From: Lentisphaeria bacterium
GTDB lineage: Bacteria; Verrucomicrobiota; Lentisphaeria; JABSQK01; JAWLHB01
Assembly: GCA_041690595.1 (NCBI GenBank)
Contig: JAWLHB010000052.1
Span: 1-56,080, forward strand
Reading direction: 5' to 3'
DNA: 56,080 nt
The notes beneath the pieces are model-generated. The model saw nothing but the letters and a program-made list of their open reading frames with translations. It made no database searches and was not told where the DNA came from. Positions 1,236 through 17,172 of the stretch are shown piece by piece. The position numbers and the translations under genes are program-made. Numbering within the stretch: the first letter of the stretch is position 1; each line of letters begins with the position of its first letter.

Positions 1236-4200
1236 CTATCCGTTCTGTATCTCGCGATAGCCTTTGCGGAGCTTGGCGGCGCTCATCCGTCGCCCCTCCT
1301 TGCGGGCGGCTTCGGGCGTCGTAAAGCCGCGGTCGAGGATCTGGCCCTTCTTGCCGATGGCGCCGTAGCGTACTCGGTAGTTGCAGCCCTCCACCGTGAC
1401 TTCCCAGAATTTCGTGGCCGGTTCGCCAAAGACGAAATAACGGGTGAAATCGTCGGGTGAATCCGTCGGGGATGTTGCCGGTTCGGCTGGCGCCGTCGGG
1501 GGGCTTGCGGGTTCCGGCTCGGCAGGGACTTCGTCCGGCAGTTGCTCTTCGGGCTCTTCCTCGCCGTTGAGCTGGCGCTCCAGACGGGCAATGAGCCGTT
1601 CGGGATCCTGCTGCCAATCCTTCGCCAGGACCATGGCGATCGGCCAACCGAAGGCGCGCAGCACCCCCGGTCGCAGCAGGTATCGTTCCAGAAGATTGCC
1701 GGTGGTATAGTGGAAGGCGGAGTCGATCAAAATGCCCAGGCGATAGGCACTGTCTCCCTGGCGGCAGACGGCCAGGTCGCAGCGAAGCGAGCTTTGACCG
1801 ACGTTCTCGTCCACCCGCCAACCACTCGCGCGCAACCTCGCGCCCAATTGCCCCGCGACGACGGCTCGGTCGGCGGTCGTGGCGCCGGTGGCCCGCTGTG
1901 GGGTCAGGCTTCCGAGCAGTCGCTGCGCCGTCGGCCAGGCGGCATTCGAGACGGCCGCCGCATACTCGAGGAAGTGGCGGAGGCAGTTGGCGCCGTCGTT
2001 GTACTCGTTGGTGATGTCGAAATGACGGATCGAGCTGACGACGACCATGTGGTGTTTGGCTCGGGAGAAGATGACGTTGAGCCGCTTTTCGCCGCCGCTC
2101 TTGTTGATGGGACCGAAATTCATCCGCATTTGCCCCTGACGGTCGTGACCATAGCAGATGCTGAGGATGATGATGTCCCGCTCGTCGCCCTGTACATTCT
2201 CCAGGTTCTTGACGAAGAGGCCACAGAACTGGTCATCCTCCTCGCGCTCCATCTCAGCTTCGAGACGCTCGGTAAAGGGGGCGTCTTCCCTGGCCAGGCG
2301 GTTGAGAGCATCCTCGATCTCGCCCTGTTGTGCCTCCGAGAAGGCGACAATGCCGATGCTCCGCCCGACTTCCGCCTGCAGCAGCGCCTTCACGAGGTGG
2401 GCGATGTAGGCGGCTTCGGCCGGATTACGCCTCTTCTCGTAGATTCCCCCTTCCAGGTAGTGGAAGCTGAGGCTTCGACCGAGCAGCTCCTCGATGTTCT
2501 CCACGGCATCTTCCGGCGCGTCGACGACAATGTCGGGAGACTCGGCGGGCGGCAGGTGACGGTCTGGAATGGTCAGGAGCTGGCCCTGGTAAAAGGCGTG
2601 GTTCGAGAAGTTGATCAGGCTCTCGTATCGGCTGCGATAGTGCCAGCCGAGCAACGTGTGGGGGAGGTTCTGAATGGTATGGGTGAGGAAGCTGTCCGCG
2701 TTCAGGTCGTACTCGACAAGGCTTCCTTCGTCTTCGATCGTCAGGCTCTCTTCATCGCTCGAGCGTGTCGCCGAAAAGAAGTTGCTGGGCGGCAACTGCA
2801 TCTCGTCACCAACCACGATCACCTGCGGGGCGCGATAGACGGCGGGCACGGCTTCCTCCAGCCGTATCTGGCTCGCTTCGTCGAAGATAACCACATCGAA
2901 ATGCTCGCTGTCCAGGGGGATGGTATCGGCCACGCTCAAGGGGCTCATCAGCCAGATGGGCTTGATGTCGAAGGCCACCAGCCCAGTCTCGTCATCGACA
3001 AGGTCGCGAATCGGCCGATAGCGCATGGTCTTGCCGAACTCGTGCTCCAGCTCGCGCCGTCCCCGGCTGTACTCCCGCTTGAAGATCCGTTCTTCCGGGC
3101 TCAGTTGCGACGTCGGCATGGCCGCGAGATTGACCCGTCGTCGGAAGTTCTCTTCCACCTGCTCGCGGATGAGTCGACCGTTGAGGCGCATCCAGTTGTC
3201 GTAGGCTTCGCTGAGGCCGTCCAGATGCCGCGCGAGCAGGCGACTTTCGAAGCGTTGCAGCCCGCGATCGGTACGGTAGACGCCGTTGAGACAGTGGACC
3301 GCTATTGCGGCTTCCAGCTGATCGCAGGTGAGCGGCAGGCGCGCCACGGCCCGGCGCAGGGAAGGAGGCAGGGCGATGAGTTCCTGCAGGTTCGGCAACA
3401 GCTCGGGCAGCAGCCCCAGGCTCGACTCTATCTCGTCAAAGATGCTCGCCAGCTCGTTCAGCTCCCGTTCCGGCAGGTCAGCCAGGAATGCTCCCGCCTC
3501 CTCCAGCAGAATGCCGAGCGGCGCCTGCAGCCGCGACAGGCGGGTGACGATCTCTGCCGCTTCATCGGGTTGTTCCGCCAGCCTTTCGTGAAAGCGCACC
3601 ACGAGGGGCGGCAGCTTCTCCAGGCTCGCGCGAATGGTGGCCAGCCTGGGCAGCAGGTCGATGGCATCCTCGAGGCCGTACTCCTGGAAGAAGCGGCTTT
3701 CGGCAGCTTCGAGCGCGGCGATCGCTTCGTGTTCGCGATTCAGCTCCTCGAGCACCTGCGACCAGCTCGGCGTGACTACGCAGCTCGCCCGGTCAAAGCG
3801 CTTGCCGAGCAGCTTGGTAAGGCGCCACCATTCCGGGCGGAAAAAGCGGGTGGGGCTGACTTCCAGCCGGCGAATGCGCTCCAGAGCCGCGCGGGTGTCG
3901 TCGGGATCGAGTTTCTGACGCCAGTGGGTCGTTCGCTCGGCTGCCTTTTCGAGCTGCTCCTGGCGATGACCGAAGTCGCGGACCATCTTCTCGAAGCGGC
4001 GGGCATCGGGAGAGCTGGGGCGAAGGAGGAAGAGCAGATCGATCTCCGCCAGAGGCAGAACGATGGTCGCGTAGGCAAGGAGATCCTGCAGGCCTGCGAT
4101 GGAGAGATTCCCGTCGAGCCCGACCTTCGGGTCCGTCGTTGCCTGCAGGATCGTGCCGAGGGCGAGGCGGCTTTCGCGCAGGTGCCCTTGCACGCGGGCA

Positions 4201-6725
4201 ACGGGTCCATCCATCTCCGCCACACTGGGCTGCAGGTGACGCAGCGGCGAGCGGGCAAATATGGGTGGCTCGCCGAGGTCGCGGAGCGCGGTTGCCAGGC
4301 GGCGTACGTTCCCTCCGTGCTCCCGCCAGGCGAGGTACGGCGGCAAGGCCTCCTCCTCTTCCGCGGTGAGCGAAGGACGATCCTGACTCAACTCGATGAG
4401 GCGATCGAGCAGCTCGCGCAGTGAGATGCCCGCACTCTCGACAGGGGTGGTCATGGCCTGGGAAACGCGACCGAGGATCGACAGGTGACGGTGGATCTCC
4501 TCGATTGCCGACTGGCGGTCAGGCGCGCAACTCTCGCTGCCTGGCGAGTTCAGAATGCGTTCGTAGGTTTCCTTCAACTCAAGGACGAACGCCTTCTTGT
4601 CGGTCTGCGAGTCGTGGATGAGGACGGTCAGTGGGTCGAGGTCCTGCTGTTTGAGGCGATGAAAGACCACATCGATGGCTGCCCGCTTTTCGCAGACGAA
4701 GAGGACGCGTTTGCTGCGCGCCACATAGTCGGCAATCAGGTTGGTGATGGTCTGGCTCTTGCCTGTGCCGGGCGGCCCCTGGATGATGTAGCTGCGACCG
4801 AGGCGGGCGCGCTGGATGGCCGAGATCTGGGTGGGATCGCCGGGCACGATAAGATGCAGATCCTCTGGATCGGGCGTGGCGACCGGCATGGCATCGTGAG
4901 GGCGCGGCTCCAGGGTAAAGATCTCTTCGAAGGCTGGATTCGAGGCGCCGCTCTCGATGAGCCGGGCATAATCCTGCACCAGCGTCATGCGCCGGTAATT
5001 GAAGTTGCCCAGGGTAACCGCGCACTGGTCGAAGTCCCACACGTAGGGGTTGGTCTCGCTCCCAGTTTGAAGGTGGTAGGAGTTCCTCGTCCGCTGGGAC
5101 GCATCCGGAGCCGGATCGAGGCCGGAGAGGGGGCCGGCGCCGGGATGGCGGGGACGCGGCAGCGCACCAAGCACATTTTCGAAGGGGGTAAGCGCCGGAC
5201 GGATGCGCTGCAGGAAGAGTTGCAGCCCGAGCGGCCGATAGTTCTCCCGCTCGTAGCAGTAGTCGATATCGTCGAGCTGACGCAAGCCGCGACCGCTGGG
5301 GCGAAGGCGCCGCCGGTAGTTGTTGAGCCGGCGCCGCGCGTTGTCGTAGATGAGCTTGATCTGTGGCCGATCCAGACGCTTGAGGGTGATGCCCGGTTCG
5401 CTGGCGTGGATCTGCTCGACCAGGTAACCATAAAAGGCATCGACTGTCGTCTTGGCGAGATCGATCGCTTCCGGCAGATCGAGGTTGTAGAGCTGCTTGA
5501 GATGAAAGCGCAGGGCGGGATTGACTTCGGCCAGTGCGCTGACGGGGGTCAGGACAAAGCTGTCGCGAATCCCCTTCTGGCGGGTCAGCTCGACCGGCAG
5601 CAGGAGCAGGGGAGAGTGGATGCGCTCGTCCGGGGATTCCTTGAGGTTGTGCCAGCGCAGAAAGACGAGCACCAGGCGCAGTTGGGAAAAGCCGAACTCG
5701 CGGGTGCTGCGCGTGGCTTCCTGCCGGATGCTGTCCAGGATGCTCGGCGCATAGATCGCTTCGCCGACGGCAAGGTACCGGTTGAGGTTGATCGCGTCGC
5801 CCCGCACAAGCTGCTCGAGCACCTCCGCATTCAGCGTGAAGAGCTTCTCCGGGGCGATGTTGCGATAGTCGAGCACCAGCGGTACAGACGCCTCCGTGAG
5901 GTTGAGGGTCTGTTGCGTGGGCCGAAAGTAGATGAGCCGGTTGCGGCGGGAGATTTCGAAGAGACGCTCGCGCAGATGATCGAGCACGATGCTTCGCCGA
6001 TCCGCCAAGGCCGCCTGCTGAAAGCCCGGCTGCTGCCGGTAGTCGATTGCCTGTCCCAACGCTTGATCGCGGTAGTTCTCCAGAGCCGCGATCAGCGAGG
6101 CCAGATCCTGTGGACGGCGATGAGGATCGAGTTCCGTCATGCGCACAATGGCCGATGCAATCACCGGATGCAGATCACCCTCGAGGGCAAAGAGATTTCC
6201 TCGGCTGGCCACAAAGCGCCGCAGGTCGTCGATCTCATCGAAATGGAGTCCCAGGCTGAGGCTGGCAAGGAGCAGGCCGAGCAGAAAGATGTCCGTTAAT
6301 TCATCGTGATGATCGAGACGCTCTTCCCAACTGGTGTAGCCGGGAAGGTAAACGGGCCTTGTCGGACTGCCCTCACCCACGCCCACGCTCAGGTTGTCCA
6401 CCTCGATCATGCCTTCATCGAGATCTGCATCCTGGCGGTACTCGCCGATGACCTCGATGGCGCGTGAAGGCGTCAGCAGGCCGTCAATGCGATTGCGCCG
6501 GCGCCTTGGCGGCAGCGCTTCGGCCTGGTGGAACCAGAGATGTGTCTCGTCGACCTGGATCTCCCAAGCGCCGTCCAGAGGAGCGACTTCACCGTGTTCG
6601 TGAGTGGTCAGCACCTGCCGCATTAGGGGCAGAATGGCCGCCAGTACATCATCGGTGCGGAAGTTGCCGGCGGCGACCCCTCCACCGAGAAAGGCACGGA
6701 AATCCTTCTGGGCAGGATTGGTCAT
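1236..6725 (-). CDS. Large SF1 (DNA2/NAM7/UPF1-like) helicase: N-terminal kinase-like region, DUF4011-like domain, AAA_11/AAA_12, Vsr/MTES_1575-like domain and C-terminal WGR domain
   Basis: Walker A QGPPGTGKSQT (4755-4778), Walker B IFDEASQ, GDEMQLPP, HYRS, VQGDERD, RLNVIFSRAK. LFEISRRNRLIYF is typical of DUF4011. C-terminal KFWEVTVEG...RYGAIGKKGQ...KLRKGY is WGR-like. Confidence 0.88.
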   Translation of the reverse strand: MTNPAQKDFRAFLGGGVAAGNFRTDDVLAAILPLMRQVLTTHEHGEVAPLDGAWEIQVDETHLWFHQAEALPPRRRRNRIDGLLTPSRAIEVIGEYRQDADLDEGMIEVDNLSVGVGEGSPTRPVYLPGYTSWEERLDHHDELTDIFLLGLLLASLSLGLHFDEIDDLRRFVASRGNLFALEGDLHPVIASAIVRMTELDPHRRPQDLASLIAALENYRDQALGQAIDYRQQPGFQQAALADRRSIVLDHLRERLFEISRRNRLIYFRPTQQTLNLTEASVPLVLDYRNIAPEKLFTLNAEVLEQLVRGDAINLNRYLAVGEAIYAPSILDSIRQEATRSTREFGFSQLRLVLVFLRWHNLKESPDERIHSPLLLLPVELTRQKGIRDSFVLTPVSALAEVNPALRFHLKQLYNLDLPEAIDLAKTTVDAFYGYLVEQIHASEPGITLKRLDRPQIKLIYDNARRRLNNYRRRLRPSGRGLRQLDDIDYCYERENYRPLGLQLFLQRIRPALTPFENVLGALPRPRHPGAGPLSGLDPAPDASQRTRNSYHLQTGSETNPYVWDFDQCAVTLGNFNYRRMTLVQDYARLIESGASNPAFEEIFTLEPRPHDAMPVATPDPEDLHLIVPGDPTQISAIQRARLGRSYIIQGPPGTGKSQTITNLIADYVARSKRVLFVCEKRAAIDVVFHRLKQQDLDPLTVLIHDSQTDKKAFVLELKETYERILNSPGSESCAPDRQSAIEEIHRHLSILGRVSQAMTTPVESAGISLRELLDRLIELSQDRPSLTAEEEEALPPYLAWREHGGNVRRLATALRDLGEPPIFARSPLRHLQPSVAEMDGPVARVQGHLRESRLALGTILQATTDPKVGLDGNLSIAGLQDLLAYATIVLPLAEIDLLFLLRPSSPDARRFEKMVRDFGHRQEQLEKAAERTTHWRQKLDPDDTRAALERIRRLEVSPTRFFRPEWWRLTKLLGKRFDRASCVVTPSWSQVLEELNREHEAIAALEAAESRFFQEYGLEDAIDLLPRLATIRASLEKLPPLVVRFHERLAEQPDEAAEIVTRLSRLQAPLGILLEEAGAFLADLPERELNELASIFDEIESSLGLLPELLPNLQELIALPPSLRRAVARLPLTCDQLEAAIAVHCLNGVYRTDRGLQRFESRLLARHLDGLSEAYDNWMRLNGRLIREQVEENFRRRVNLAAMPTSQLSPEERIFKREYSRGRRELEHEFGKTMRYRPIRDLVDDETGLVAFDIKPIWLMSPLSVADTIPLDSEHFDVVIFDEASQIRLEEAVPAVYRAPQVIVVGDEMQLPPSNFFSATRSSDEESLTIEDEGSLVEYDLNADSFLTHTIQNLPHTLLGWHYRSRYESLINFSNHAFYQGQLLTIPDRHLPPAESPDIVVDAPEDAVENIEELLGRSLSFHYLEGGIYEKRRNPAEAAYIAHLVKALLQAEVGRSIGIVAFSEAQQGEIEDALNRLAREDAPFTERLEAEMEREEDDQFCGLFVKNLENVQGDERDIIILSICYGHDRQGQMRMNFGPINKSGGEKRLNVIFSRAKHHMVVVSSIRHFDITNEYNDGANCLRHFLEYAAAVSNAAWPTAQRLLGSLTPQRATGATTADRAVVAGQLGARLRASGWRVDENVGQSSLRCDLAVCRQGDSAYRLGILIDSAFHYTTGNLLERYLLRPGVLRAFGWPIAMVLAKDWQQDPERLIARLERQLNGEEEPEEQLPDEVPAEPEPASPPTAPAEPATSPTDSPDDFTRYFVFGEPATKFWEVTVEGCNYRVRYGAIGKKGQILDRGFTTPEAARKEGRRMSAAKLRKGYREIQNG

Positions 6726-7915
6726 GATGAAGCCTCCTCATCGGCCATGGCCTCCGCTGCCTTGCGCATGACAGCCAGCTGGCGCTTGTTCATGCGCAGC
6801 TCTTTGGCGATAATGCCGTCGTAGCAATCGGCAAGGCCGATTTCGCCCGCCAGTCTCCATGTGGCAGCCAGGGCATTCTCTTCAAGGTCGGGGTCGACTG
6901 TACCGAAATCGAGGAGGAGATAGCAGAGATACTCCTGAAGCCGGGGATCTTCGAAGCAGCATTCCGCCAGGCAATCAGGGTCGGGCCGAACGACCATATC
7001 TGAGAAAAAGAGGTGGGCGTGCCCCATGACGCGGTCGGTGCGCAGCCACTCCCGGCTCAGCAAGTGTCCCAGTAGTCGTCGCGTCAGGGTCGTGAGTTTC
7101 TGCTGGTCGAGCAGGTCCATTTCGTTGAGCGTCAGCGGACCCTGAATCATTCGTCGCAGTTCGACGTCCACCTCGTCGGCCGCCAGCTCGCCTCTGCTCC
7201 AGAGATTCACCGCCCGTGCACGAATATACGCCTCGGGATGGGTGACGCCGTCGGTCTTGATCTTATCGCGCAGCAGGATTTCGTCAGCCTGCTTGAGGTA
7301 TGCCGCCGCACTCACTTTCTCCAGCCCCGTCATCACTTTCACCAAGGCTGAGACCGCCACTTGCGGATCGTCGACAACCATGGCGGAGCCGCGATCCGCA
7401 AAGATCTCCGTATACAACTGGTAGCGGCGGGCGCTGTGAAAGTGGCTTGCTTCGGCCCGCGGGTCGTTCGCCATGGCAAGCAGGGCGCGATCGGTGGTGA
7501 GGTAGTCTCCATCTTCGAGCTCCCACAGCACGTAATGCGCGAACTCGTGCCCGATCAGCGACTTGATCTCCCGGTCATCCAGATGCTCCAGGACCTGCCC
7601 GGCGAAGACCAGGTGAATCTCGCGCGGCGCATAGCAGAGAAAAGCGCCCGAATCCCGCTGCTCGGTCGATTGATAAAGGGTGACCGGGACCCCCAGATCG
7701 AAGACGGCGAGCACCTCGTCGGCCAGTCTGTGAAGCTCCCCATGGCTTTCACGATCGAGGCGATACGTTGCTTTCAACAGATCGAGACGAATCTGGTCCA
7801 GATACTCCGTCTCCGTCGACTTCGATGCAAACCATGCCCACAGCGCCGGTTCCTCCTGCTTCAGGAAGTCGCGCAACATCCGGTGATAGAAGAGTGGCTC
7901 CACGCCGGCATCCAT
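6722..7915 (-). CDS. M48-family zinc metallopeptidase, apparently soluble
   Basis: IGHEFAH (HExxH), downstream EIFADR third ligand and THP motif. No obvious TM helices or signal peptide. ATGA overlap with the helicase start. Confidence 0.85.
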   Translation of the reverse strand: MDAGVEPLFYHRMLRDFLKQEEPALWAWFASKSTETEYLDQIRLDLLKATYRLDRESHGELHRLADEVLAVFDLGVPVTLYQSTEQRDSGAFLCYAPREIHLVFAGQVLEHLDDREIKSLIGHEFAHYVLWELEDGDYLTTDRALLAMANDPRAEASHFHSARRYQLYTEIFADRGSAMVVDDPQVAVSALVKVMTGLEKVSAAAYLKQADEILLRDKIKTDGVTHPEAYIRARAVNLWSRGELAADEVDVELRRMIQGPLTLNEMDLLDQQKLTTLTRRLLGHLLSREWLRTDRVMGHAHLFFSDMVVRPDPDCLAECCFEDPRLQEYLCYLLLDFGTVDPDLEENALAATWRLAGEIGLADCYDGIIAKELRMNKRQLAVMRKAAEAMADEEASS

Positions 7916-8154
7916 TCCCGCTGAAGGTCAAACTCGTGCCGAGAAAGGATACTTAATAGCACGCCATCCAGACTTCCGCAACAGGCGTCAAAAGGCGGCT
8001 CATGGGAAGGGATGTTTGCCGAGCCAGACTTTGCGAAATCTGCTTTTCTGCGTCAATCGCGGGTGTCATGGCATATTCTGCTCGCGGAACCATGGGGGAG
8101 AGCCGGTGTCCTTGAAAGGATACAGCAGGTTTGGTTGACGACTACAGGATTCTT

Positions 8155-10896
8155 ATGCGCAGGTACCTCTACTCGGTATTATTTCTGGTCACGTTGGGGC
8201 TGTCGTGGGCCGAGGGGCCGGCGAGTCGTCAATTCGACTTCGCGGAAGGGGCATTCGTACATCGGGACTACCTCACGGCGATCGAGGAGTTTCGCACCTA
8301 TCTGGAGGAGTATCCGGAGGGGGAGCAGACGGCGACGGCGTTGCTGCGCCTGGGGCAATGTTATCTGCGCGTGGGCGACCACGCCAAGGCTGCCGAGCAG
8401 TATGAAGCTTTTCTGAAGAAGCATCCGCTGGACGAACGCGCGCCACGAGCCCATTTCGATGTTGCCCAGGCCTATACGCAGCTGAACAACCAGGCGTTGG
8501 CACTGGAACACTATCAGGCGGCGGCCGGGGCTGATGACGCGCGGGTGCGGGAGGAGGCCATCATCGGCCAGGGCGAAGCGCTGATCGCCTTGGAGAAATA
8601 TCCCGAAGCAGCTCTGCTGTATGAAGAATTCCTGAAAGCGTTTCCGCAATCGACGCATCGGCCGGCCATCCTCTTTTCTCGCGGCTGGGTGCTTCAGCAG
8701 ACGGGGGAGAGTGCCACGGCCGTGACGGTTCTGGAGGAGCTGGTCGCGAAGCATGAGGATTTCGGTGATCTGGATCGGGCGCGTCTGCTGCTCAGCGATG
8801 CGGCGAGTGCGGCCGGCAATCATGAGCGGGCCGCCGAGGTGCTCCGTGAGGTGATGGCGGCGGGCCGTGAGGCGGAAGCGGCCATGCTTCGCCTGGCTTG
8901 GACCATGTATCGGGGCGGCGACAAGAACGGGGCGGCAGCCCTCTTCATCGACTTCGCCCATCGCTATCCGACCCATGACCAGGCGCCGACCGCCCTCTAC
9001 AACGCCGCGATCTCGTACTACGACAGCAGGGAGTTCGCCAAGGCGGCGGAGATCTGCCGAGAGCTGCGCCAGGCATATCCCGACCAGGCACCAGCGAAGG
9101 AAGCTCACTTCTGGCTGGGGTTGTCGCTGCTGGAACTGCAGCAGCACGCGGCAGCGGCGGAGGTTCTGGAAGAGGTGCTCAACGGGGGCCATCTGAGCGC
9201 GGAGCAGGCGCCGAGCGCCTTGTACGGCGCGGCGACTGCTCTGGCTGCCGCGGGGAAAGCCGAGGCCGCGATCGGTCGCTATCGGCAGTTGCGCGAGGCA
9301 CACCCACAATCCGGCTATTACGATACCGCCAGCTATTCCCTGGCGAACCTCCTCGCTGCTTCCGGTGACCGGGATGCCGCCGTGCAGGTGCTGACTGCGC
9401 TGCTCGCTTCGCATCCGCAAAGTGAGTTGCTGCCCAGGATCCGCTTTGCCCTTGGCGAACACCTCTTCTTTCTCGATCGGTTTGGCGAGGCGCTGGTGCA
9501 TCTGGAAGCCTGCCGTGAGGCCGGCGACGATGAAGCCAAGGTGCTCTGCCGGCTTGGCTGGACGCAATTCCGGCTGGAGGATCACGCCGGCAGCCAGGCT
9601 ACCTTCATGGCCCTGAGCGGCATGGATTCGCCTTTCCGCCAGGAGGCGCGCTACATGGCTGGACGCGCCAGCGAGATGGGGGGTAACGTCGAGCAGGCAG
9701 TGACGCAGTACCAGACGGTGATCGAAGCGGGAGACGGGCCTTTTGTCGAGAAGGCGAGCTACAGTCTCGCTTTTCTCTTGAAGGGAAAGAGCGCCATCGA
9801 CGCGATCCGGAGCTACCTGACCCGCTTCCCCGAGGGTGAGCACGTCCTCGACCTGCGGCTGAAGCTTGCCGAGCTGCGGCTGGCGGCCGGCGAGGTGGAG
9901 AGCGCCAGGGAGATCTATGCGGCGCTGGCGAAGGCGGAGCTTTCACCCGTGCATCGACGAACCGTCGACTACGGTCTGGGCTGGTGCGCACTTCGTAATG
10001 ATGAACTGGCGGAGGCAGATGACTTCTTCGCGAAGGTGACGATGCCGCCGGCGGATCTGGTGGGGCTCGACGCGCTGCAACAGCGGGGCGAGATTGCCTT
10101 TCGGCAGGAACGTTTCGCGGAAGCGCGGCGCTGGTTCGGTGAGCTGGTCGAGGCGCTGGGGGAGGGGAGTGAGCCTCAGCGCCGGGAGCGTGGCTGGTAC
10201 ATGCTGGGCTGGAGCAGTCGGCACCTGAAGATGTCCGCCGAGGCAGCCGAAGCCTTTCGCCGCCAGGTCGAGCTTTTTCCTCAAGGTGAGCTGGCCGGCG
10301 ATGGATGGCTGCGGCTCGCGGAAGCGCTCCATGAGCGTGGCGACGCCGCGGCGGCCGCCAAGGTGCTGACGGAGGCGCTGGCTCAGGTGAAGCCGACGGA
10401 GGAGTTGCTTCACCTGCAGGGGGATATCCTGGTGGCGCTTCAGGAGTGGCGCCAGGTGATCGAACGCAGCGAGTTCTTGAAAGATGAGTTCCCCGAATCC
10501 CGACGGATCTACATGGCCACATTCCGCATGGGGCTGGCCTACAAGGCGCTGTCCATCCATGAGGAGGCTGAAAAGCAGTTCGAGGCGACCATCGCGGCGA
10601 CGGAGACGGTCGAGGCCGCTCAGGCGCAGTTCAACATCGGCGGCCTTTACTTCAGCCAGAAGAAGTATGCGGACGCCGGCAAGCACTTTCTGCGGGTGGA
10701 GATGCTCTATGACTATCCAGAGCTTTCTCCGAAGGCGCTCTACCACGCGACGGAATCTTTCCTCATGGCGGAAGGCGTCGAGTCGCGCCGAGCCGGAATC
10801 TATCGTGAAAAACTGAAGAAAGATTATGCGGCGTCTGAATGGGCGGTCAAGGTCGACAGCCTCTTCACGGCCGCGAGGGTGGAGGGTCAGGAATGA
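8155..10896 (+). CDS. Exported multi-TPR protein (CpoB/BamD-like repeats)
   Basis: ATG 8155 preceded by ACAGGA. Signal peptide MRRYLYSVLFLVTLGLSWA. Many TPR pairs with YP-type turns (EEYPEG, KAFPQS, HRYPTH, ELFPQG). Confidence 0.85.
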   Translation: MRRYLYSVLFLVTLGLSWAEGPASRQFDFAEGAFVHRDYLTAIEEFRTYLEEYPEGEQTATALLRLGQCYLRVGDHAKAAEQYEAFLKKHPLDERAPRAHFDVAQAYTQLNNQALALEHYQAAAGADDARVREEAIIGQGEALIALEKYPEAALLYEEFLKAFPQSTHRPAILFSRGWVLQQTGESATAVTVLEELVAKHEDFGDLDRARLLLSDAASAAGNHERAAEVLREVMAAGREAEAAMLRLAWTMYRGGDKNGAAALFIDFAHRYPTHDQAPTALYNAAISYYDSREFAKAAEICRELRQAYPDQAPAKEAHFWLGLSLLELQQHAAAAEVLEEVLNGGHLSAEQAPSALYGAATALAAAGKAEAAIGRYRQLREAHPQSGYYDTASYSLANLLAASGDRDAAVQVLTALLASHPQSELLPRIRFALGEHLFFLDRFGEALVHLEACREAGDDEAKVLCRLGWTQFRLEDHAGSQATFMALSGMDSPFRQEARYMAGRASEMGGNVEQAVTQYQTVIEAGDGPFVEKASYSLAFLLKGKSAIDAIRSYLTRFPEGEHVLDLRLKLAELRLAAGEVESAREIYAALAKAELSPVHRRTVDYGLGWCALRNDELAEADDFFAKVTMPPADLVGLDALQQRGEIAFRQERFAEARRWFGELVEALGEGSEPQRRERGWYMLGWSSRHLKMSAEAAEAFRRQVELFPQGELAGDGWLRLAEALHERGDAAAAAKVLTEALAQVKPTEELLHLQGDILVALQEWRQVIERSEFLKDEFPESRRIYMATFRMGLAYKALSIHEEAEKQFEATIAATETVEAAQAQFNIGGLYFSQKKYADAGKHFLRVEMLYDYPELSPKALYHATESFLMAEGVESRRAGIYREKLKKDYAASEWAVKVDSLFTAARVEGQE

Positions 10897-11669
10897 AGGC
10901 ATGGTTGCTTCCAGCGCCTTGCGCGGCGCGGCGTCCGGGGGCGCGTCTGCTCCAGTACGTGATTGTTCTGATGGTCGGCTTCGCGGTCTCCATGGCGATG
11001 GCGGCGGACGGGGAGGGGGCAGGCGTGGGCGTACTTGGCGGCACGGTCGGTGGCACGCTGGAACGCGGCGGAACGGTCATGTACCTGATCCTTGCACTCT
11101 CCATCCTGGGGCTGGCGTTCATCCTGGAAGCTTCCTGGAAATCCCGCCGGAGCGCAATCCTGCCGAAGCCGGTGGCGGATGCCCTTGGCAGCAGGTCGCC
11201 AAATGCCGTGCGCGATGTGGTCGCCGAGGGCAAGAGCAGTATCGCGCATGCGATCCTCACGGCCGGCTATGCATGGCGAAACGGGAGTTCCGAGCAGATC
11301 GCGGCAGCCATCGAGGAGAAGACGGATGAGCTGCTCTGGACCTTGAAGCGGTCGGCGCGCCCGCTGGGTATCATCGCCAACACGGCACCGCTCCTCGGCC
11401 TCCTGGGAACCGTCATCGGTATCATTCAGGCATTCGACACGGTGGCGCGCAGCGGCGCCCTTGGCGATCCCGGCGCCCTGGCCGGCGGCATCTCGAAGGC
11501 GTTGCTGACCACCTGCTTCGGGCTGATCGTTGCCATCCCCCTGTTGCTCGCCTACCACTTCTTTGTCGGCCGGATCGAAACGCGCACCCGCGCCTGTGAG
11601 ATCCTGGCCAAAGAGCACTTGATCCTGCCGCCCGAACGCCCGGAAGCGGTCCCGGCCGGGGAGGGTTGA
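10893..11669 (+). CDS. exbB: MotA/TolQ/ExbB proton channel protein
   Basis: TAPLLGLLGTVIGII and ALLTTCFGLIVAIP motifs. ATGA overlap with the TPR gene stop. Confidence 0.88.
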   Translation: MKAWLLPAPCAARRPGARLLQYVIVLMVGFAVSMAMAADGEGAGVGVLGGTVGGTLERGGTVMYLILALSILGLAFILEASWKSRRSAILPKPVADALGSRSPNAVRDVVAEGKSSIAHAILTAGYAWRNGSSEQIAAAIEEKTDELLWTLKRSARPLGIIANTAPLLGLLGTVIGIIQAFDTVARSGALGDPGALAGGISKALLTTCFGLIVAIPLLLAYHFFVGRIETRTRACEILAKEHLILPPERPEAVPAGEG

Positions 11670-11672
11670 GCC

Positions 11673-12092
11673 ATGTCCCGGCAGCATTGGGAGAGCGACG
11701 AGGGCTTCGAAATACCGCTCACGCCGCTGATCGACATCGTCTTCATTCTGATCATCTTCTTCCTTGTCGCCACCACCTTCTACACGGAAGAGCGGGACAT
11801 CGAAGTGAAGCTGGCGGAAGGGACCGAAGGGGAGCTGATCGCCCAGGAGAACGAGGCGTTCGTGGTCAATATTCGCGGCACCGGTGTGCTGGTGGTGCGT
11901 AACCAGATGGTCACCGAAGACGAGCTGACGGAGATGCTGCGGACGCTGGCGCGGCAGGCAAATCCGAAGGTCGAGATCCGGGGCGATACGACGGCCAACC
12001 ATGGCGGCGTCATGAAGGTGATCAATCTCTGCAAACGCCATGGCATCGGCAATCTCTCCCTCACCCAGCGCATCGTCAAGGAATCGCCATGA
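11673..12092 (+). CDS. exbD: ExbD/TolR family protein
   Basis: LTPLIDIVFILIIFF TM helix with the conserved Asp. VEIRGD...HGGVMKVINLC periplasmic motif. Confidence 0.9.
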   Translation: MSRQHWESDEGFEIPLTPLIDIVFILIIFFLVATTFYTEERDIEVKLAEGTEGELIAQENEAFVVNIRGTGVLVVRNQMVTEDELTEMLRTLARQANPKVEIRGDTTANHGGVMKVINLCKRHGIGNLSLTQRIVKESP

Positions 12093-12093
12093 C

Positions 12094-15000
12094 ATGCGAC
12101 AAGCTGCCCCCAGAACCCTCGTCCTGTGCATCCTGCTGCTACTCGCCTGGCGCGGTGGCGCCGAGGATTTCTGGATCGTGCAGAAGCTTCATGAGCAGGC
12201 TGGAACGGCTGCCGACAAGGGCTTGCTGATCGCCGAACCGCTGGCCGGTGGCGAGGCGACCATGGCTGCCTGCCGCATTGTACGCCAAGGTGATGAGCAG
12301 TGGATTGTCGGTATGCTCTCCGTCGACCTCAGCGGCGACTACCGGCTGCGCCTGAAGCGAGATGGTGACGCCGCGCCGCTGACCCTGGTGGAGCAGCGGA
12401 CCCTGCGCCATCGCTACTACGATGTCGTGCTGCTGATTGATACCTCCCTCAGCATGCACAAGAACGACCCCGCCAACCTCAGGGGCGATGCCATTCGCAG
12501 CTTCGTCAAGCTGGCCCGGCGAGGGGGCGGCATTCGCCGGCTGGCTCTGCTGGCGTTTGACGACGAGGTTCGGACCCTTCTGCCCCCCACCGCGCCGGGC
12601 CGGATTGGTGATCTCGAACCAATCATGGCCGAGCTGCGACCACGCGGGAGAACTGACTTCGACAAGCCCTTCCGGGCCGCGCGGGAGCTGCTGGCGGAGG
12701 GATCCGGTGCGACGCCCGCGGTCATCTTCCTCTCTGACGGCGAACCCTTCGGAACGTATGGCGGCGGGCATCGCCTGCTGGCGGAGATGGGCTGCCCGAT
12801 CTACGCGATCGGCCTGAGCGGCGAGGCCGACGCAGCGCTGCTGGCAAAGGTGGCCGCGGAGAATGAGGGCCGCTTCTTCGATGCGCCGCGCGCGGATCAG
12901 CTCCCCGGCATCTTCACCGAGATCTTTCGCCTCATCAGCCCCCCGGCAACCGTCTATCGGGAGACCTTGACGGTCGATGCCGAAGCAGGGCAGTCCTTGT
13001 TGATTGATCCCGACATGCGCAATACCGTGCTGGAGTGGGCCTCTCTCGGCGGTGGGCAGACGGTGACGCTGGGCGACCGGGAGCTGCTGGCAGTGGCGGA
13101 CGGGGAGCGGATCGGGATGGATCTGGCGGAACTGACGGTCGGAAGCCATCCGTTGCGGGTGCGAGGATCGGGTCGCGCCTCAATGACGTTGCTGGCCGAT
13201 GCGGATGTCGATCTTCTGCCGATCGCGCTGAACCAGGTGGCGGAGCAAGGACTGCCGTTGGCGACTGGGGTGGTGCTGCGTGGCCATGCCCTCTGCGACG
13301 CGGTGACCATCGATGCCGTCGTCACCACCCCAGGTGGGCGCACGATGCCGCTGACGGTCACCGAGTCTGGCGTGCCGGGCTTTCATCTCTTCTCGGATTC
13401 TCCCGCCATCCAGGCGGGAACGTACGCCATCCGGGTGAGGGTGGAGGGGCGCATTGGCGGATTTCCATTCGTTCGGGCGACCACCATCCATCTTCAGCGT
13501 CACCAACGGGCGACCGCGATGCAGCCTCTCCTCTCTCCCACGTCCGGCCTTTCGCTGCCGGCGCTCGATCTGCCAGCGCCCGCCGCCATTGAGTTGGATC
13601 CCACTCGTCAGGCGACCGGCACCAGCGACTTGCGTACCACCTTCTGGGCATCCGCCGAACGGCTGCTGCTCGACGATCTGTATCCCGGATCGTCGACAAC
13701 GCAAGAACTCGAAGTCATGCTCAGTTCACCGGCCGAGACGGAGGTGGAGGTGCGGCTGGCCAGCCCGGAAGGGAATGGGGTGACGATACAGGTGGAGGGG
13801 AGGGTGCAGGCCAATCGAAAGGCGCTCCTGCGCATCAGTGCCGAGGCGGGGGCGGACGCGGCGGGCAACCGGCATGAGGGGACGCTCGTGGTTACGGCCG
13901 GCCGGCAATCGTGGACGGTGCCGATCGCGGTCAGCGTCGCCGTGCCGCGCATCGTCATCGAAGCTGCCGAGCCTCAGTTCACCGACATGCCGAGTCGGGT
14001 CACGGCGGTTCAGAAGCTCGCCGTGAGGCTGGAGCCTGGTGGGCGGATGCCCTTGCGGATCGAGACCGACCTGCCGGCACTGCGGGTGACGCCTGAGCTG
14101 CTCGATGGCGGCGTCGGCGCCGTGCGCGCCTCCCTGGCCTTCACGGTGAACAGGCCGGTCGAGCAGCGCCACTGGCAGGGGACGGTGCGGGTGAGCGGCA
14201 TCGGCCTGCAACCGGCCGAACTGCCATGGGAGGTGGAGATTCGCGAGCGGACGGCCGTGCCGGGGATCGATCAGGTGCGGAGCGGCAGCTTCGACTGGCG
14301 GCTCCTGCTCTGGATCCTGCTGGCGCTGGTGATCATCGCCCTGGTCCTCGCGGCGATGCGGGGCAATTCACGCGCGGTTTTCGTTCTGGCATCGCTGGCG
14401 ATTCATCTGGCAATTCTCTTCCTCGTGCTCCCGCGGGTCGAAGAGGAACCGGAAGAGGCACAGGCCGTCACCACTATCCAGATGACCAGTGGTGGCGTCG
14501 TGCATGAGCAGGAGATCGCCTCCGAGGTTGCCACCTACCGTCCTGATGAGCAGACGCCGCGGGCCGAAGCGCCCCAACAGGTCGAGACGGCTGAACTGCC
14601 CAAGCCGGAAGAGGAGCAGCCCAGCCAGCTCGATACGCCGGAGGCACAGGCGGTGCTCGAGGAGACGGCGGAGGCTGCCGAGATCGTGAAGGAGGTGCCG
14701 CGAGAGGAGCTTGCGCCTGCACTGGCGGAGCCCACCACGGCCGTGCCCGCCGCCAGGCGCGAGGAGATCGCAACTCCTCAGGACGCACCCGCGGCCCCCG
14801 CCGAAAGCGCTCAGCCGCGGGAGTCCGTCGCCCATCTCGAGACGGCAACACCGGGCGCGTTGGCGCCCGCCGAGCTGCAGGCTGAGGTGCGGGCCGCGGT
14901 CGACCTGAACCCTGCCGAGCTGCCGGTGGAGCGAGAGGCCGTCACCCCTGATGCGCCCGGCGAGCCGACGCAGGCTCCCGTCGCCAGGCGGCTGGCCGTG

Positions 15001-17172
15001 CTGCCGACGGTCGATGCGCCTCTGGAGGGTGGAACACGGGGCGCACCCGGGCGCACCGTCATGCAGGTGACCATGGGGGATACTGTTGAAGCGCTGGCGC
15101 CAGGTGACGTGGCGTCGGAGGTGGCGGTCGAGGCCGTACTGGCGGGGGCAGCGACGGAGGTGGCGCGGCCGACAGTGGCTCTCTCGACGCCGGCCGCGGT
15201 GGCGGCCGAGCCCATTTCCAGGCGTTCAGCGGCGGAGAGTGCCACCGGTACAACGCGCGGTCCCGCGGCACCTGCCATGGCGGCACCCGCAACGTCCGCG
15301 GCTCGCGTGGAGAGCACAACAGCAGGAAGCCTCGATCCCGGCACGGCCCGCGAGCATATCGAGGCGTCGACCGTGGCAAAGGAGTGGCAGCCGGAGGTGG
15401 CGAGGACGCCCGCCTCCATCACGGCGCCCATGGCGGATGCTCCAGGTGCCGCGACCACCCGGCTTCGCGCCTCATCATCGGGCCGTGGTACGGCCGAGGC
15501 GCATGCTGTCGGCGAGGGTGCGCCAGTGGTCACCGTGACATCTACGCCGCGGATGGTGGCGCGGGATCTGCCCATCGACCGGACCGGCGACGCCACGGTC
15601 GCCCCGCGGGTTACGCTGAATCCCTCTATTGAGGCCATGCCCGCGCCGAGTGTACACGGAGAGCTGGTGCCGGCTTATGCCGAGTTGCCGCGGGAAGCCG
15701 CCGCCGCGCCGGGTCGGGGCCGATCGTCGGCGCCTGTCTCCGGTGGGTCGGAGTCTCCGCGGGCGCTCGATGCCGAAGGGGCGAAGCCGGCGCCACTGAC
15801 TCCAGCCCTGCCTCTAGCCGCTTCGCCGATGCCCATGAGCGTGGATGCGCCCGTGGCAAACCTGCTGCAGGGGAGTGCATTGCGGGAACCGCCGAGCATC
15901 GGCCTCCGGCAGAGTGAGGAGGGTGGACGCGCCGCGGGCAAGTGGGGCAGGACGCTGCCGTTGCTGCGCTACGATGGCGACTGGGATGCGGACAAGACCG
16001 CCATGATCAACCTGGCTCACCAGCTCGAACGGCGGACAGGCAGCCTGTTGCCGATCGAAAGTCGCACGATCGACCTTACGCATCCGGAGCTGGGAGCGAC
16101 TCCTTTTCTCTTCATGACCGGGCACCGCGACTTTCGCCTCACGGAAGCCGAGCGCAACGCTCTTCGGCAGTATCTGGAGCAGGGTGGATACCTCTGGATC
16201 AACGACTCGACCGACTTGGGCGACGAGCAGTACGATGAGGCGGTGCGACGGGAGCTTGGCGCCATATTTGGGAAGGCCGCCGAGCTGCGTGCTATTCCCA
16301 TGGATCATGGGCTCTTCGCCGCGCCTTACGATTTGCGGCAGGGCTACAAGGGATACAGGGTTCCCCCTGGCGACAAGTATCGGCAGGACTACATCGAAGG
16401 ACTCTGGCTCGGTGATCGACTCGCCGTGGTCTACACCCGCAACGACTATGGCGACGGCTTGGAGATCGATCCGCACACGCACCCGCTGATGCCTTCGCTC
16501 AGCGATCTTTCGCCCGCCGAGATGCAGGAAGGGTCGGCACGCATGGGCATCAACATCGCCCTGCATTTCATGAATCGCGGTGAAGCACCCAAGGCGCACG
16601 TCACTACACGCGTGCAGACCACGACCAGCGCGGACGATGCCGAGGATCGCGCCTGGATCGGCAACCCGCCACTCGATTCCCCGTTGTCGACGCCGTCGCT
16701 GCAGTGGGTCCAGCCTGAAGGGTGGGGCGATCTCATTCCCGCCACCGGCGACTATACCGAAGACGGCACGCTGCGGTTGCGCTTCCGCAAGGAAGGTGGG
16801 ACCGTGACGCGACGCGACAAGGCTGTCATTGGAACGGCGCTCGACATTCAACTGAGCAACAGGCAGGGCATTGTACTGGATCTCCTCAGCACCCTCAGCG
16901 GTGGGGCGCGGATGGCGCTTGCTTTCAACGGCCCCGATGGCTACATCGAATCCGGGCCGGTCTTTCTGCGACCGGGTATGAACCGGGATGTGGCCTTCGA
17001 TCTCAGTGCCTCCAGCTTCAAGAACGAGGCGACACAGTGGGAGCACACGGCGGAGTTCGGGGAACGCCGGCAGGTGGATGCCATCTATCTGATCATCTAT
17101 CCGCAGCAGGGCGCCGGCGAGCTGCGCATGGAAAAAATCCGCCTCATCCAGCGCTCCGAGGGGCTCAAGTAA
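12094..17172 (+). CDS. Membrane-anchored fusion: vWA domain, beta-rich domains, TM hairpin with TonB-like SxxxH, Ala/Pro/Glu linker, DUF4159-like domain, C-terminal beta-sandwich
   Basis: Signal peptide; MIDAS DTSLS plus LSDGE; two hydrophobic helices at about 14290-14430; low-complexity linker; PFLFMTGHRDFRLTEAERNALRQYLEQGGYLWIND resembles DUF4159. Confidence 0.8.
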   Translation: MRQAAPRTLVLCILLLLAWRGGAEDFWIVQKLHEQAGTAADKGLLIAEPLAGGEATMAACRIVRQGDEQWIVGMLSVDLSGDYRLRLKRDGDAAPLTLVEQRTLRHRYYDVVLLIDTSLSMHKNDPANLRGDAIRSFVKLARRGGGIRRLALLAFDDEVRTLLPPTAPGRIGDLEPIMAELRPRGRTDFDKPFRAARELLAEGSGATPAVIFLSDGEPFGTYGGGHRLLAEMGCPIYAIGLSGEADAALLAKVAAENEGRFFDAPRADQLPGIFTEIFRLISPPATVYRETLTVDAEAGQSLLIDPDMRNTVLEWASLGGGQTVTLGDRELLAVADGERIGMDLAELTVGSHPLRVRGSGRASMTLLADADVDLLPIALNQVAEQGLPLATGVVLRGHALCDAVTIDAVVTTPGGRTMPLTVTESGVPGFHLFSDSPAIQAGTYAIRVRVEGRIGGFPFVRATTIHLQRHQRATAMQPLLSPTSGLSLPALDLPAPAAIELDPTRQATGTSDLRTTFWASAERLLLDDLYPGSSTTQELEVMLSSPAETEVEVRLASPEGNGVTIQVEGRVQANRKALLRISAEAGADAAGNRHEGTLVVTAGRQSWTVPIAVSVAVPRIVIEAAEPQFTDMPSRVTAVQKLAVRLEPGGRMPLRIETDLPALRVTPELLDGGVGAVRASLAFTVNRPVEQRHWQGTVRVSGIGLQPAELPWEVEIRERTAVPGIDQVRSGSFDWRLLLWILLALVIIALVLAAMRGNSRAVFVLASLAIHLAILFLVLPRVEEEPEEAQAVTTIQMTSGGVVHEQEIASEVATYRPDEQTPRAEAPQQVETAELPKPEEEQPSQLDTPEAQAVLEETAEAAEIVKEVPREELAPALAEPTTAVPAARREEIATPQDAPAAPAESAQPRESVAHLETATPGALAPAELQAEVRAAVDLNPAELPVEREAVTPDAPGEPTQAPVARRLAVLPTVDAPLEGGTRGAPGRTVMQVTMGDTVEALAPGDVASEVAVEAVLAGAATEVARPTVALSTPAAVAAEPISRRSAAESATGTTRGPAAPAMAAPATSAARVESTTAGSLDPGTAREHIEASTVAKEWQPEVARTPASITAPMADAPGAATTRLRASSSGRGTAEAHAVGEGAPVVTVTSTPRMVARDLPIDRTGDATVAPRVTLNPSIEAMPAPSVHGELVPAYAELPREAAAAPGRGRSSAPVSGGSESPRALDAEGAKPAPLTPALPLAASPMPMSVDAPVANLLQGSALREPPSIGLRQSEEGGRAAGKWGRTLPLLRYDGDWDADKTAMINLAHQLERRTGSLLPIESRTIDLTHPELGATPFLFMTGHRDFRLTEAERNALRQYLEQGGYLWINDSTDLGDEQYDEAVRRELGAIFGKAAELRAIPMDHGLFAAPYDLRQGYKGYRVPPGDKYRQDYIEGLWLGDRLAVVYTRNDYGDGLEIDPHTHPLMPSLSDLSPAEMQEGSARMGINIALHFMNRGEAPKAHVTTRVQTTTSADDAEDRAWIGNPPLDSPLSTPSLQWVQPEGWGDLIPATGDYTEDGTLRLRFRKEGGTVTRRDKAVIGTALDIQLSNRQGIVLDLLSTLSGGARMALAFNGPDGYIESGPVFLRPGMNRDVAFDLSASSFKNEATQWEHTAEFGERRQVDAIYLIIYPQQGAGELRMEKIRLIQRSEGLK

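Follow-up and report, generated by a model that had tools for sequence, protein, structure and literature searches.

What could a zinc protease be doing when its gene is translationally coupled to that of a large helicase resembling anti-phage proteins? The question is raised by two reverse-strand genes on a contig of 56,080 nucleotides from a Lentisphaeria bacterium (JAWLHB010000052.1; assembly GCA_041690595.1), the whole of which is called the window here. Gene 1 (open reading frame at 6722..7915, minus strand) codes for an M48 zinc protease of 397 residues with a C-terminal TerB-like domain, and gene 2 (open reading frame at 1236..6725, minus strand) for a protein of 1829 residues in which a kinase C-lobe, DUF4011, an SF1B helicase with a long insert, a degenerate restriction-endonuclease (REase) fold and a WGR domain follow one another. 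Judged from sequence comparisons and structure models, the ATPase and protease motifs are intact, the nuclease motifs are eroded, the kinase C-lobe is non-catalytic, the protease bears its TerB-like tail, and protease and helicase are strictly paired or else fused. We favour the reading, to which we give slightly less than an even chance, that the helicase of this pair may sense nucleic acid and that proteolysis may have replaced nuclease activity as its output, the setting being phage or toxin conflict; the protease is taken as the acting part because the nuclease site is eroded while the protease has been kept adjoining or fused.

Linkage of the two genes

The TGA stop of the protease gene and the ATG start of the helicase gene share the four bases ATGA at 6725-6722, the translational coupling that an earlier reading made from the sequence alone (the sequence-only reading) had pointed out. 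We found in addition that a ribosome-binding site, GAGGAGG, sits within the final M48 codons just 5' of the helicase start, the complete coupling element occupying 6722..6739 on the minus strand, and that in alignments the helicase homologs begin at the same residue as the helicase of the window. A promoter scan returned one weak sigma-70-like site 260 bases upstream, which is at chance level, and a terminator was not found.

This arrangement is widely conserved. Both genes are present in 113 of 118 related loci (98 clusters at 90% identity), three of the others being truncated and two devoid of the protease; the intergenic gap is at most 100 bases in 104 of the 113, a coupling far beyond chance, and the genes overlap or abut in about 75, with starts extrapolated. 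Linkage is seen from either gene. GTDB loci found through the protease have the helicase downstream in 37 of 38 cases, the 38th ending 120 bases after the protease stop, and metagenome loci found through the helicase N-terminus have the protease upstream in 76 of 80 (two have no upstream DNA and two no gene), these 80 being the best of 387 and biased to close relatives. Two-gene loci occur in at least four groups, namely Verrucomicrobiota, Planctomycetota, Bacteroidota and Betaproteobacteria. The two open reading frames are thus confirmed as a genuine conserved two-gene unit, and the dedicated protease partner, kept immediately upstream, is as the sequence-only reading proposed.

A second family carries both activities in one gene. 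It comprises 100 clusters (P0122-P0124 and P0275-P0371) with M48-TerB N-terminal to a DUF4011 helicase, in taxa that include Myxococcota, Opitutae and Proteobacteria; HExxH is retained in 90 of its 92 long members, the REase site is even more eroded than in the split family, and the kinase C-lobe is absent. Helicase-core trees of 38 and 42 rows were built, 6 of 44 rows having been dropped for failed motif cutting. In the free trees the split family groups with ProA/Hhe (support 85-86, unstarred); a common grouping of split and fused families was not rejected by the approximately unbiased test (p 0.49, and p 0.73 with higher likelihood for the 42-row tree), and their single origin is neither shown nor rejected by these alignments. 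The fused members P0302 and P0304 carry an added exonuclease domain.

Several loci depart from the common pattern. Intact-looking helicases without a protease occur in L066 (1802-7087), L098 (7860-13187) and L166 (7077-12725); a restriction-modification methylase lies downstream of the L098 helicase and an RtcB gene 3 kb downstream of that of L066. An ORF6N-domain gene separates the two genes in L021 (11304-11828), as does a 2 kb insertion in L097 (2030-3915). In L004, L029, L030 and L168 the helicase, and in L029 also the protease, is broken by frameshifts or stops, through assembly error or decay. Locus L033, titled Bifidobacterium, is nearly identical to the Bacteroidetes locus L034 and is probably a binning error.

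Protease and helicase domains

The M48 catalytic domain spans approximately residues 16-260 (7136..7870, minus strand; Pfam PF01435), with HEFAH at 123-127, the third ligand at E170, D174, and THPE at 225-228. Pfam matches Peptidase_M48 over residues 58-236 (E 2.5e-7; 31.2 bits against a cut-off of 20.3), and H123-E124-H127, E170, D174 and H226-P227-E228 are invariant in an alignment of 71 proteases, made up of 45 of the 120 listed matches, 25 GTDB loci and the window protein. The structure model (pLDDT 94.2) has an M48 fold over residues 16-246, as compared with 3c37 (Z 9.7, rmsd 4.6, 170 aligned) and Ste24 4il3 (Z 9.3, rmsd 3.9, 182 aligned); Foldseek with this model gave nothing at E <= 0.001. 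The maximum 19-residue hydropathy is 1.25, and none of the 71 homologs exceeds 1.8, such that no membrane segment was found. A membrane protease of the HtpX type was considered and rejected, as HtpX models score 30.6 against a cut-off of 341 and the membrane segment is missing. The intact HExxH...E site of a protein without membrane segments, claimed from the sequence alone, is therefore borne out, and the protease is a soluble gluzincin with an intact predicted zinc site.

The TerB-like helical domain behind it, which the sequence-only reading had missed, covers residues 270-375 (6791..7108, minus strand), with D336 and D341 invariant and E372 nearly so. Its alignment by VIA-align to 2ou3, a COG3793 tellurite-resistance protein, is middling (Z 7.0, rmsd 3.3, 101 aligned). 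Pfam TerB does not match the window protease itself but does match two fused relatives at the equivalent place, one of them scoring above the gathering threshold and the other below it.

The MTES_1575/Vsr-like REase fold of the helicase (residues 1629-1719; 1569..1841, minus strand; Pfam and alignment) has an eroded active site, with L1666 at the position where Hhe and ProA carry the Glu of ExDG, and with RDRD missing. In an REase alignment from which rows without the anchor motif were dropped (1 of 119 split, 3 of 92 fused), this Glu is found in 0/118 split-family, 0/89 fused-family and 10/14 ProA-type proteins. The last Asp of RDRD is kept by 8/118 split and 14/14 ProA-type proteins; in the fused set it does not figure among the common residues, and the first Asp is Pro in 54/89. 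The central Asp is retained in 117/118 split proteins and a nearby His in 70/118. The E. coli Hhe allele that we compared has an intact site, E1727-C-D-G..RDRDR. According to a preprint on this system, the mutation E1731A abolished hhe defence (10.1101/2022.06.16.496414); we infer that this residue corresponds to Glu 1727 of our allele, because the offset is 4 residues and 1727 is the nearest Glu. Nuclease activity has probably been lost in the split-family helicases, and we go no further than probably because the Glu is likewise missing from 4 of the 14 ProA-type proteins and because the central Asp is so widely kept.

The motor, as predicted from its motifs, is a Upf1-like SF1B helicase with motifs I-VI intact. 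Its first part (residues 632-766; 4428..4832, minus strand; Pfam AAA_11) contains Walker A, and its second part (residues 1226-1565; 2031..3050, minus strand; Pfam and alignment) contains Walker B, DEASQ, and motifs III-VI, with a Pfam AAA_12 match at residues 1351-1565. Between Walker A and Walker B lies an insert of about 460 residues (3051..4427, minus strand), poorly conserved at 0.26-0.58 per 50-residue block. The helicase motifs are conserved across 112 full-length sequences, highly so at GPPGTGKS (650-657), DEASQ (1282-1286) and RLNV..SR (1548-1555), in agreement with the intact SF1 motifs noted before. Upstream of the motor, DUF4011 occupies residues 254-406 (5508..5966, minus strand; Pfam E 9.2e-14). 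Among proteins of solved structure, those closest in sequence are IGHMBP2, Sen1, Upf1 and Dna2, each of them a weak match.

The N-terminal kinase-like module of the sequence-only reading has a kinase fold but turned out to be a C-lobe only. Residues 1-222 (6060..6725, minus strand) were assigned from the structure model, VIA-align and alignment; the model reaches pLDDT 89.5 and matches PknB 1mru (Z 14.2, rmsd 3.2, 162 aligned), most matched kinase chain ranges start at the hinge, indicating that the N-lobe is absent, and the Atlas places these residues in kinase clusters at 0.97. Pfam Pkinase gave no match on the helicase. In the alignment the Asp of the catalytic loop is replaced (VAPL) and the glycine loop is absent, and E134, HHD at 139-141, D145 and R204 are conserved; these motif names presume the kinase subdomains as we know them. 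An active Hanks-type kinase was rejected, given that only the C-lobe is present, without the N-lobe Gly loop and Lys and with the catalytic Asp replaced. On these models, the helicase N-terminus is a non-catalytic kinase C-lobe. The linker from the C-lobe to DUF4011 (residues 221-260) has a lower confidence (pLDDT 57-72). A C-lobe profile found 473 representatives at E 0.001, N-terminal in nearly all of the 150 listed, and found no match in ProA-type, Hhe or fused-family proteins; 80 of those 150 are full-length (at least 1640 residues) and form our diverse homolog set. The HHD motif (window 6303-6311, minus strand) is invariant or nearly so in 98 sequences, although this part of a kinase normally varies, and could possibly be a metal or docking site.

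At the other end, WGR (residues 1771-1828; 1242..1415, minus strand; Pfam E 2.3e-9) lies behind an acidic, proline-containing linker. It is present in the window helicase, as first reported, and in 29/31 GTDB helicases, but in only 25/80 of the diverse representatives; it was therefore rejected as a core part and is regarded as accessory.

Proposed mechanism and rival readings

In the mechanism that we propose, protease and helicase would be made 1:1 and bind each other, most likely through the kinase C-lobe/DUF4011 end of the helicase, since M48-TerB is attached there in the fused family. The helicase might load on an abnormal nucleic acid, such as a broken RNA, an R-loop or a DNA end, and the probably inactive REase fold and, where present, WGR might act there as binding modules; its ATP-driven movement would activate or deliver the protease, which may cut a host or phage protein and so limit the attack by phage or toxin. 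RNA or R-loops are at least as likely as DNA to be the substrate because the helicase resembles Upf1, IGHMBP2 and Sen1, and for the same resemblance the "DNA surveillance" of the sequence-only reading is not established. That reading had left two logics side by side; the helicase activating the protease is now favoured, and the protease releasing a helicase-nuclease is weakened by the eroded site.

The closest helicase models are of anti-phage proteins, both protease-bearing families are without the ExDG Glu, and the distribution is patchy: the protease is found in 2/40 whole genomes of near relatives and the helicase N-terminus in 3/300 genomes of the phylum, two with the protease and one without. 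We count these points, together with the two-way linkage, the fused family with its retained HExxH, the loss of the last RDRD Asp, the effect of the Glu change on Hhe, the TerB domains of Shango and Bunzi and the kinase-helicase fusion of Mokosh I, for the pair being a defence device with a proteolytic output. Several others count against it. The neighbours, scanned with Pfam (142 at 26 GTDB loci and 147 of 278 at metagenome loci, genes from a simple caller), are mostly housekeeping genes. PADLOC matched 10 of the 142, most of them through generic domains, plausible defence-type neighbours occur at only about 3/26 GTDB loci, and there are none among 20 neighbours of 4 further loci and 4 window genes. 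The protease is unmatched in 50,697 phage records, and on plasmids it is found at full length only in 14 Ralstonia megaplasmids. Three helicases have no protease (L066, L098 and G291, in whose 99%-complete genome no homolog of the window protease was found), and these also carry the eroded nuclease site; the loss of the Glu in 4/14 ProA-type proteins and the central Asp retained in 117/118 split proteins point the same way. As to defence islands, the expected enrichment was not observed; the test has little power because the ProA control is no higher (6 matches among 72 neighbours, 2-3/14 loci). The helicase C-terminal half matches 440 plasmid records, most of those listed being single-gene types, and three non-Ralstonia plasmid helicases that were checked are ProA above cut-off. 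Viral contigs scanned for the helicase N-terminus by single-sequence patterns, a method of low sensitivity, yielded no relative.

No third gene common across taxa was found at the loci of the pair. In the window, a convergent Wzy_C/TPR gene lies on the left, its stop codon directly adjoining that of the helicase, and a divergent TPR gene lies on the right (both by Pfam). The latter opens a divergent operon (8131-17172, plus strand) that includes the TPR protein and a vWA protein of 1710 residues with a long Ala/Pro/Glu-rich linker; the genes after the TPR gene we take to be ExbB/ExbD-like from their motifs. The GC content is 60-63% at the pair and 61.5% in the genome, with no sign of recent arrival. 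This 8.1 Mb genome has a single copy each of protease and helicase, plus one distant second SF1 helicase of 1193 residues with Walker A and DEASQ (G000:C18, ~113800-115700).

An RNA-repair setting was seen at a minority of loci. RtcB, Ro60, KptA, NrtR, NADAR, PARG, ADP-ribosylglycohydrolase, 2H or ARPP genes adjoin 17 of the 118 loci, of which 16 hold both protease and helicase, and frequently share their strand; none of these neighbours was found in the other 101, in 7/7 further loci or in the window. When 18 ProA/Hhe control loci were searched with the same panel of queries, the only match was to a PRPP synthetase and none of the listed genes turned up; in the 8.1 Mb genome the panel gave a single RtcB. 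The panel was built from the same loci, so that some matches are self-matches and kin are not independent. In conflicts between viruses and their hosts, KptA, 2H, Macro, NADAR and cREC are described as enzymes that clean up RNA ends and ADP-ribose (PMC9503650). In Flavobacterium-type loci (L022 at 3508-15358, L023, L024, L027, L033-L036) the pair is embedded in or adjoins an NrtR operon that includes PRPP-synthetase-like, PARG, NADAR, Macro, KptA, NAMPT and vWA genes. In L071 (1803-6728), L042 (1436-6457) and L064 (1116-1745) a same-strand run of KptA, isochorismatase, Nudix and ADP-ribosylglycohydrolase genes, with a nucleotidyltransferase and an HD-like gene, leads into the protease, one ADP-ribosylglycohydrolase being fused to cREC. 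A protein of 500-650 residues without a Pfam match comes after the helicase in five loci (L058 at 13585-16766, L071, L072, L074 and L089), and in three of them it is followed by a second conserved gene, presumably SWIM-finger-like. In the Ralstonia megaplasmid locus L127 (13965-26717), where the pair is annotated "M48 family metalloprotease" and "WGR domain-containing protein", a same-strand uvrA of 1945 residues comes next.

These neighbourhoods suggest, as the main rival and one that the sequence-only reading did not consider, though we hold it fairly unlikely, that the pair is a repair or quality-control machine. The helicase would move along damaged RNA or DNA and deliver the protease to proteins stuck there, a bacterial analogue of SPRTN/Wss1 that works with a helicase; the proteins would be crosslinked, ADP-ribosylated or stalled, and the ends would be cleared for repair of the RtcB, KptA or PNKP type. 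It would accommodate the 17/118 against 0/18 contrast, KptA plus Nudix/NrtR operons in the Flavobacterium-type L022 and in a soil clade (L042, L071), two lineages that share only about 33% identity, NrtR ending 16-25 bases ahead of the protease match in 7 loci, the uvrA next to the pair in one Ralstonia record, a weak SprT-like Pfam match (E 0.0056, below cut-off) and the absence from phages and ordinary plasmids. The contrast is small, however, and the 17 loci may stand for only 2-4 independent lineages; most loci lack such neighbours, the panel derives from the loci themselves, a prevalence of 1% is low for general repair, and the protease is acidic (pI 4.9). Somewhat less probable again is a helicase-driven protease for damaged ribonucleoproteins or nucleic-acid-protein adducts left by ribotoxins or phage enzymes, where the motor would find broken or ADP-ribosylated RNA or DNA and feed the protein to the C-lobe-docked protease before repair by RtcB or KptA. 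Of defence and repair, we hold defence at a little under an even chance and repair at clearly less.

Protease and helicase could also act in the reverse order, which we consider improbable: the protease, triggered via TerB or a phage protein, would clip the C-lobe and free a helicase effector, whose agent, on this equally improbable view, would be a variant REase site or the motor alone. Zinc peptidases are known as regulators in IrrE/CapP. The lower-confidence linker behind the C-lobe, an exposed variable hairpin on the C-lobe itself, the REase Asp and His that are kept, and a zinc peptidase as regulator in RosmerTA (10.1101/2022.05.11.491447) would fit such gating; yet the REase site has lost the ExDG Glu and RDRD residues, the aligned linker shows no conserved cleavage motif, and the fused family keeps its protease site although it gave no match to the C-lobe profile. 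Far less probable still is a toxin-antitoxin-like pair, the helicase being toxic alone and restrained by the protease. That would explain the linkage without any sensing role and suits the small upstream and large downstream gene, their translational coupling and the patchy spread, but intact-looking orphan helicases exist (L066, L098, G291), fusion into one chain is hard to reconcile with antitoxin turnover, and neither phages nor ordinary plasmids were found to carry the pair.

Comparison with named systems

DUF4011 helicases described so far as defence proteins are encoded by one gene each, and Hhe depends on its nuclease residue; the split and fused families both join an eroded nuclease site to an intact zinc protease. 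A helicase that reads nucleic acid and answers by proteolysis is what our favoured reading predicts, a logic that we did not find described for the DUF4011 group. The pair would be a clean genetic test of what the DUF4011-helicase scaffold senses, and it provides a kinase C-lobe that is conserved on its own and a well-defined enzymatic context for a TerB-like domain. If the repair reading were true, a proteolytic step would be added to bacterial RNA repair; if the adduct reading were, the pair would be a prokaryotic counterpart of SPRTN/Wss1 derived from an immune helicase, with the nuclease swapped for a protease, possibly twice.

The sequence-only reading had likened the helicase to Hhe. The domain order of DUF4011, helicase and Vsr-like fold holds, but the closest models are ProA (Prometheus, NCBIfam NF058533; 675.8 bits, under the cut-off of 1500) and, in PADLOC, PDC-S37 (660 bits). 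On relatives, the ProA model gives 713.8 and 639.9 bits for two homologs and 514-559 for fused forms, all below cut-off. DUF4011, the SF1 helicase with a long insertion and the MTES_1575 REase fold are common to ProA and the window helicase. In contrast to ProA, the model match starts only at helicase residue 564, a kinase C-lobe and WGR are added, the REase site is eroded, an M48-TerB partner is present, the clade is separate, and DUF3320 is absent (PF11784 without a match at E up to 1), with WGR in its place, whereas the ProA control has DUF3320. DUF3320 is reported to be absent from some ProA variants as well, and ProA is described as a single-protein system akin to eukaryotic antiviral enzymes that act on R-loops (PMC13700489). 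The C-lobe and protease profiles gave no match in 4 named ProA/Hhe proteins, and no protease match occurs at 14 ProA loci or in two ProA genomes.

Hhe (NCBIfam NF042953, PADLOC PDLC02194) of E. coli is 34% identical to the window helicase over the C-terminal 530 residues, and its model scores 438.9 bits against a cut-off of 2000. It differs in being a single gene with the intact ECDG..RDRDR site, where the window has two genes and a Leu at the Glu position. In a quick LG+G4 helicase-core tree of 42 rows, the support by Shimodaira-Hasegawa-like approximate likelihood ratio test (SH-aLRT) was 98 for Hhe+ProA, with one Hhe row, 99 for the split family and 98 for the fused one. With the ProA and Hhe scores below cut-off and no PADLOC model matching the window protease, the pair matches no named system.

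Mokosh type I (MkoA/MkoB) likewise has two genes, and MkoA models match the helicase core at E 2.5e-40, over residues 1272-1594 only. This system is described as having a Upf1-like helicase bearing a Ser/Thr kinase domain, a kinase-helicase fusion (10.1101/2022.05.11.491447). The Mokosh I partner is a PLD nuclease and that of the window an M48-TerB protease; unlike Mokosh I, the window helicase has only a C-lobe remnant of the kinase and contains DUF4011 and the REase fold. TerB domains are reported for Shango and Bunzi in the same work (10.1101/2022.05.11.491447). In Shango a TerB-type domain stands alongside a helicase, as the TerB-like domain does in the window pair; this system differs in its three genes, which include those of a DEAD/DEAH helicase and an ATPase, and the TerB protein of Bunzi differs in having membrane helices, no M48 protease being mentioned for either in the parts available (10.1101/2022.11.11.516204, 10.1101/2022.05.11.491447).

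Regarding the protease, the M48 enzymes HtpX, Ste24/ZMPSTE24 and BepA share with it the HExxH..E..D and THP motifs and the gluzincin fold; unlike them, it is predicted to be soluble, has a TerB-like tail and is tied to a helicase. SPRTN/Wss1, which act on DNA-protein crosslinks, and IrrE/CapP are zincin proteases switched on by nucleic acid. They belong to different peptidase families, and their fold comparisons stay at background level (6mdx Z 5.3; CapP 7t5t E 0.84). We know of no protease of the SPRTN/Wss1 or IrrE/CapP type that is the partner of a bacterial SF1B helicase. A full-text literature search found no description of the pair, while supplements of defence-prediction and gene-neighbourhood papers, outside that search, could list it. 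By its motifs and models, the pair shares its motor with the DUF4011-SF1B superfamily but falls outside ProA, Hhe and Mokosh I, and it is apparently a previously undescribed two-gene variant, M48-TerB plus DUF4011 helicase, of this known helicase superfamily.

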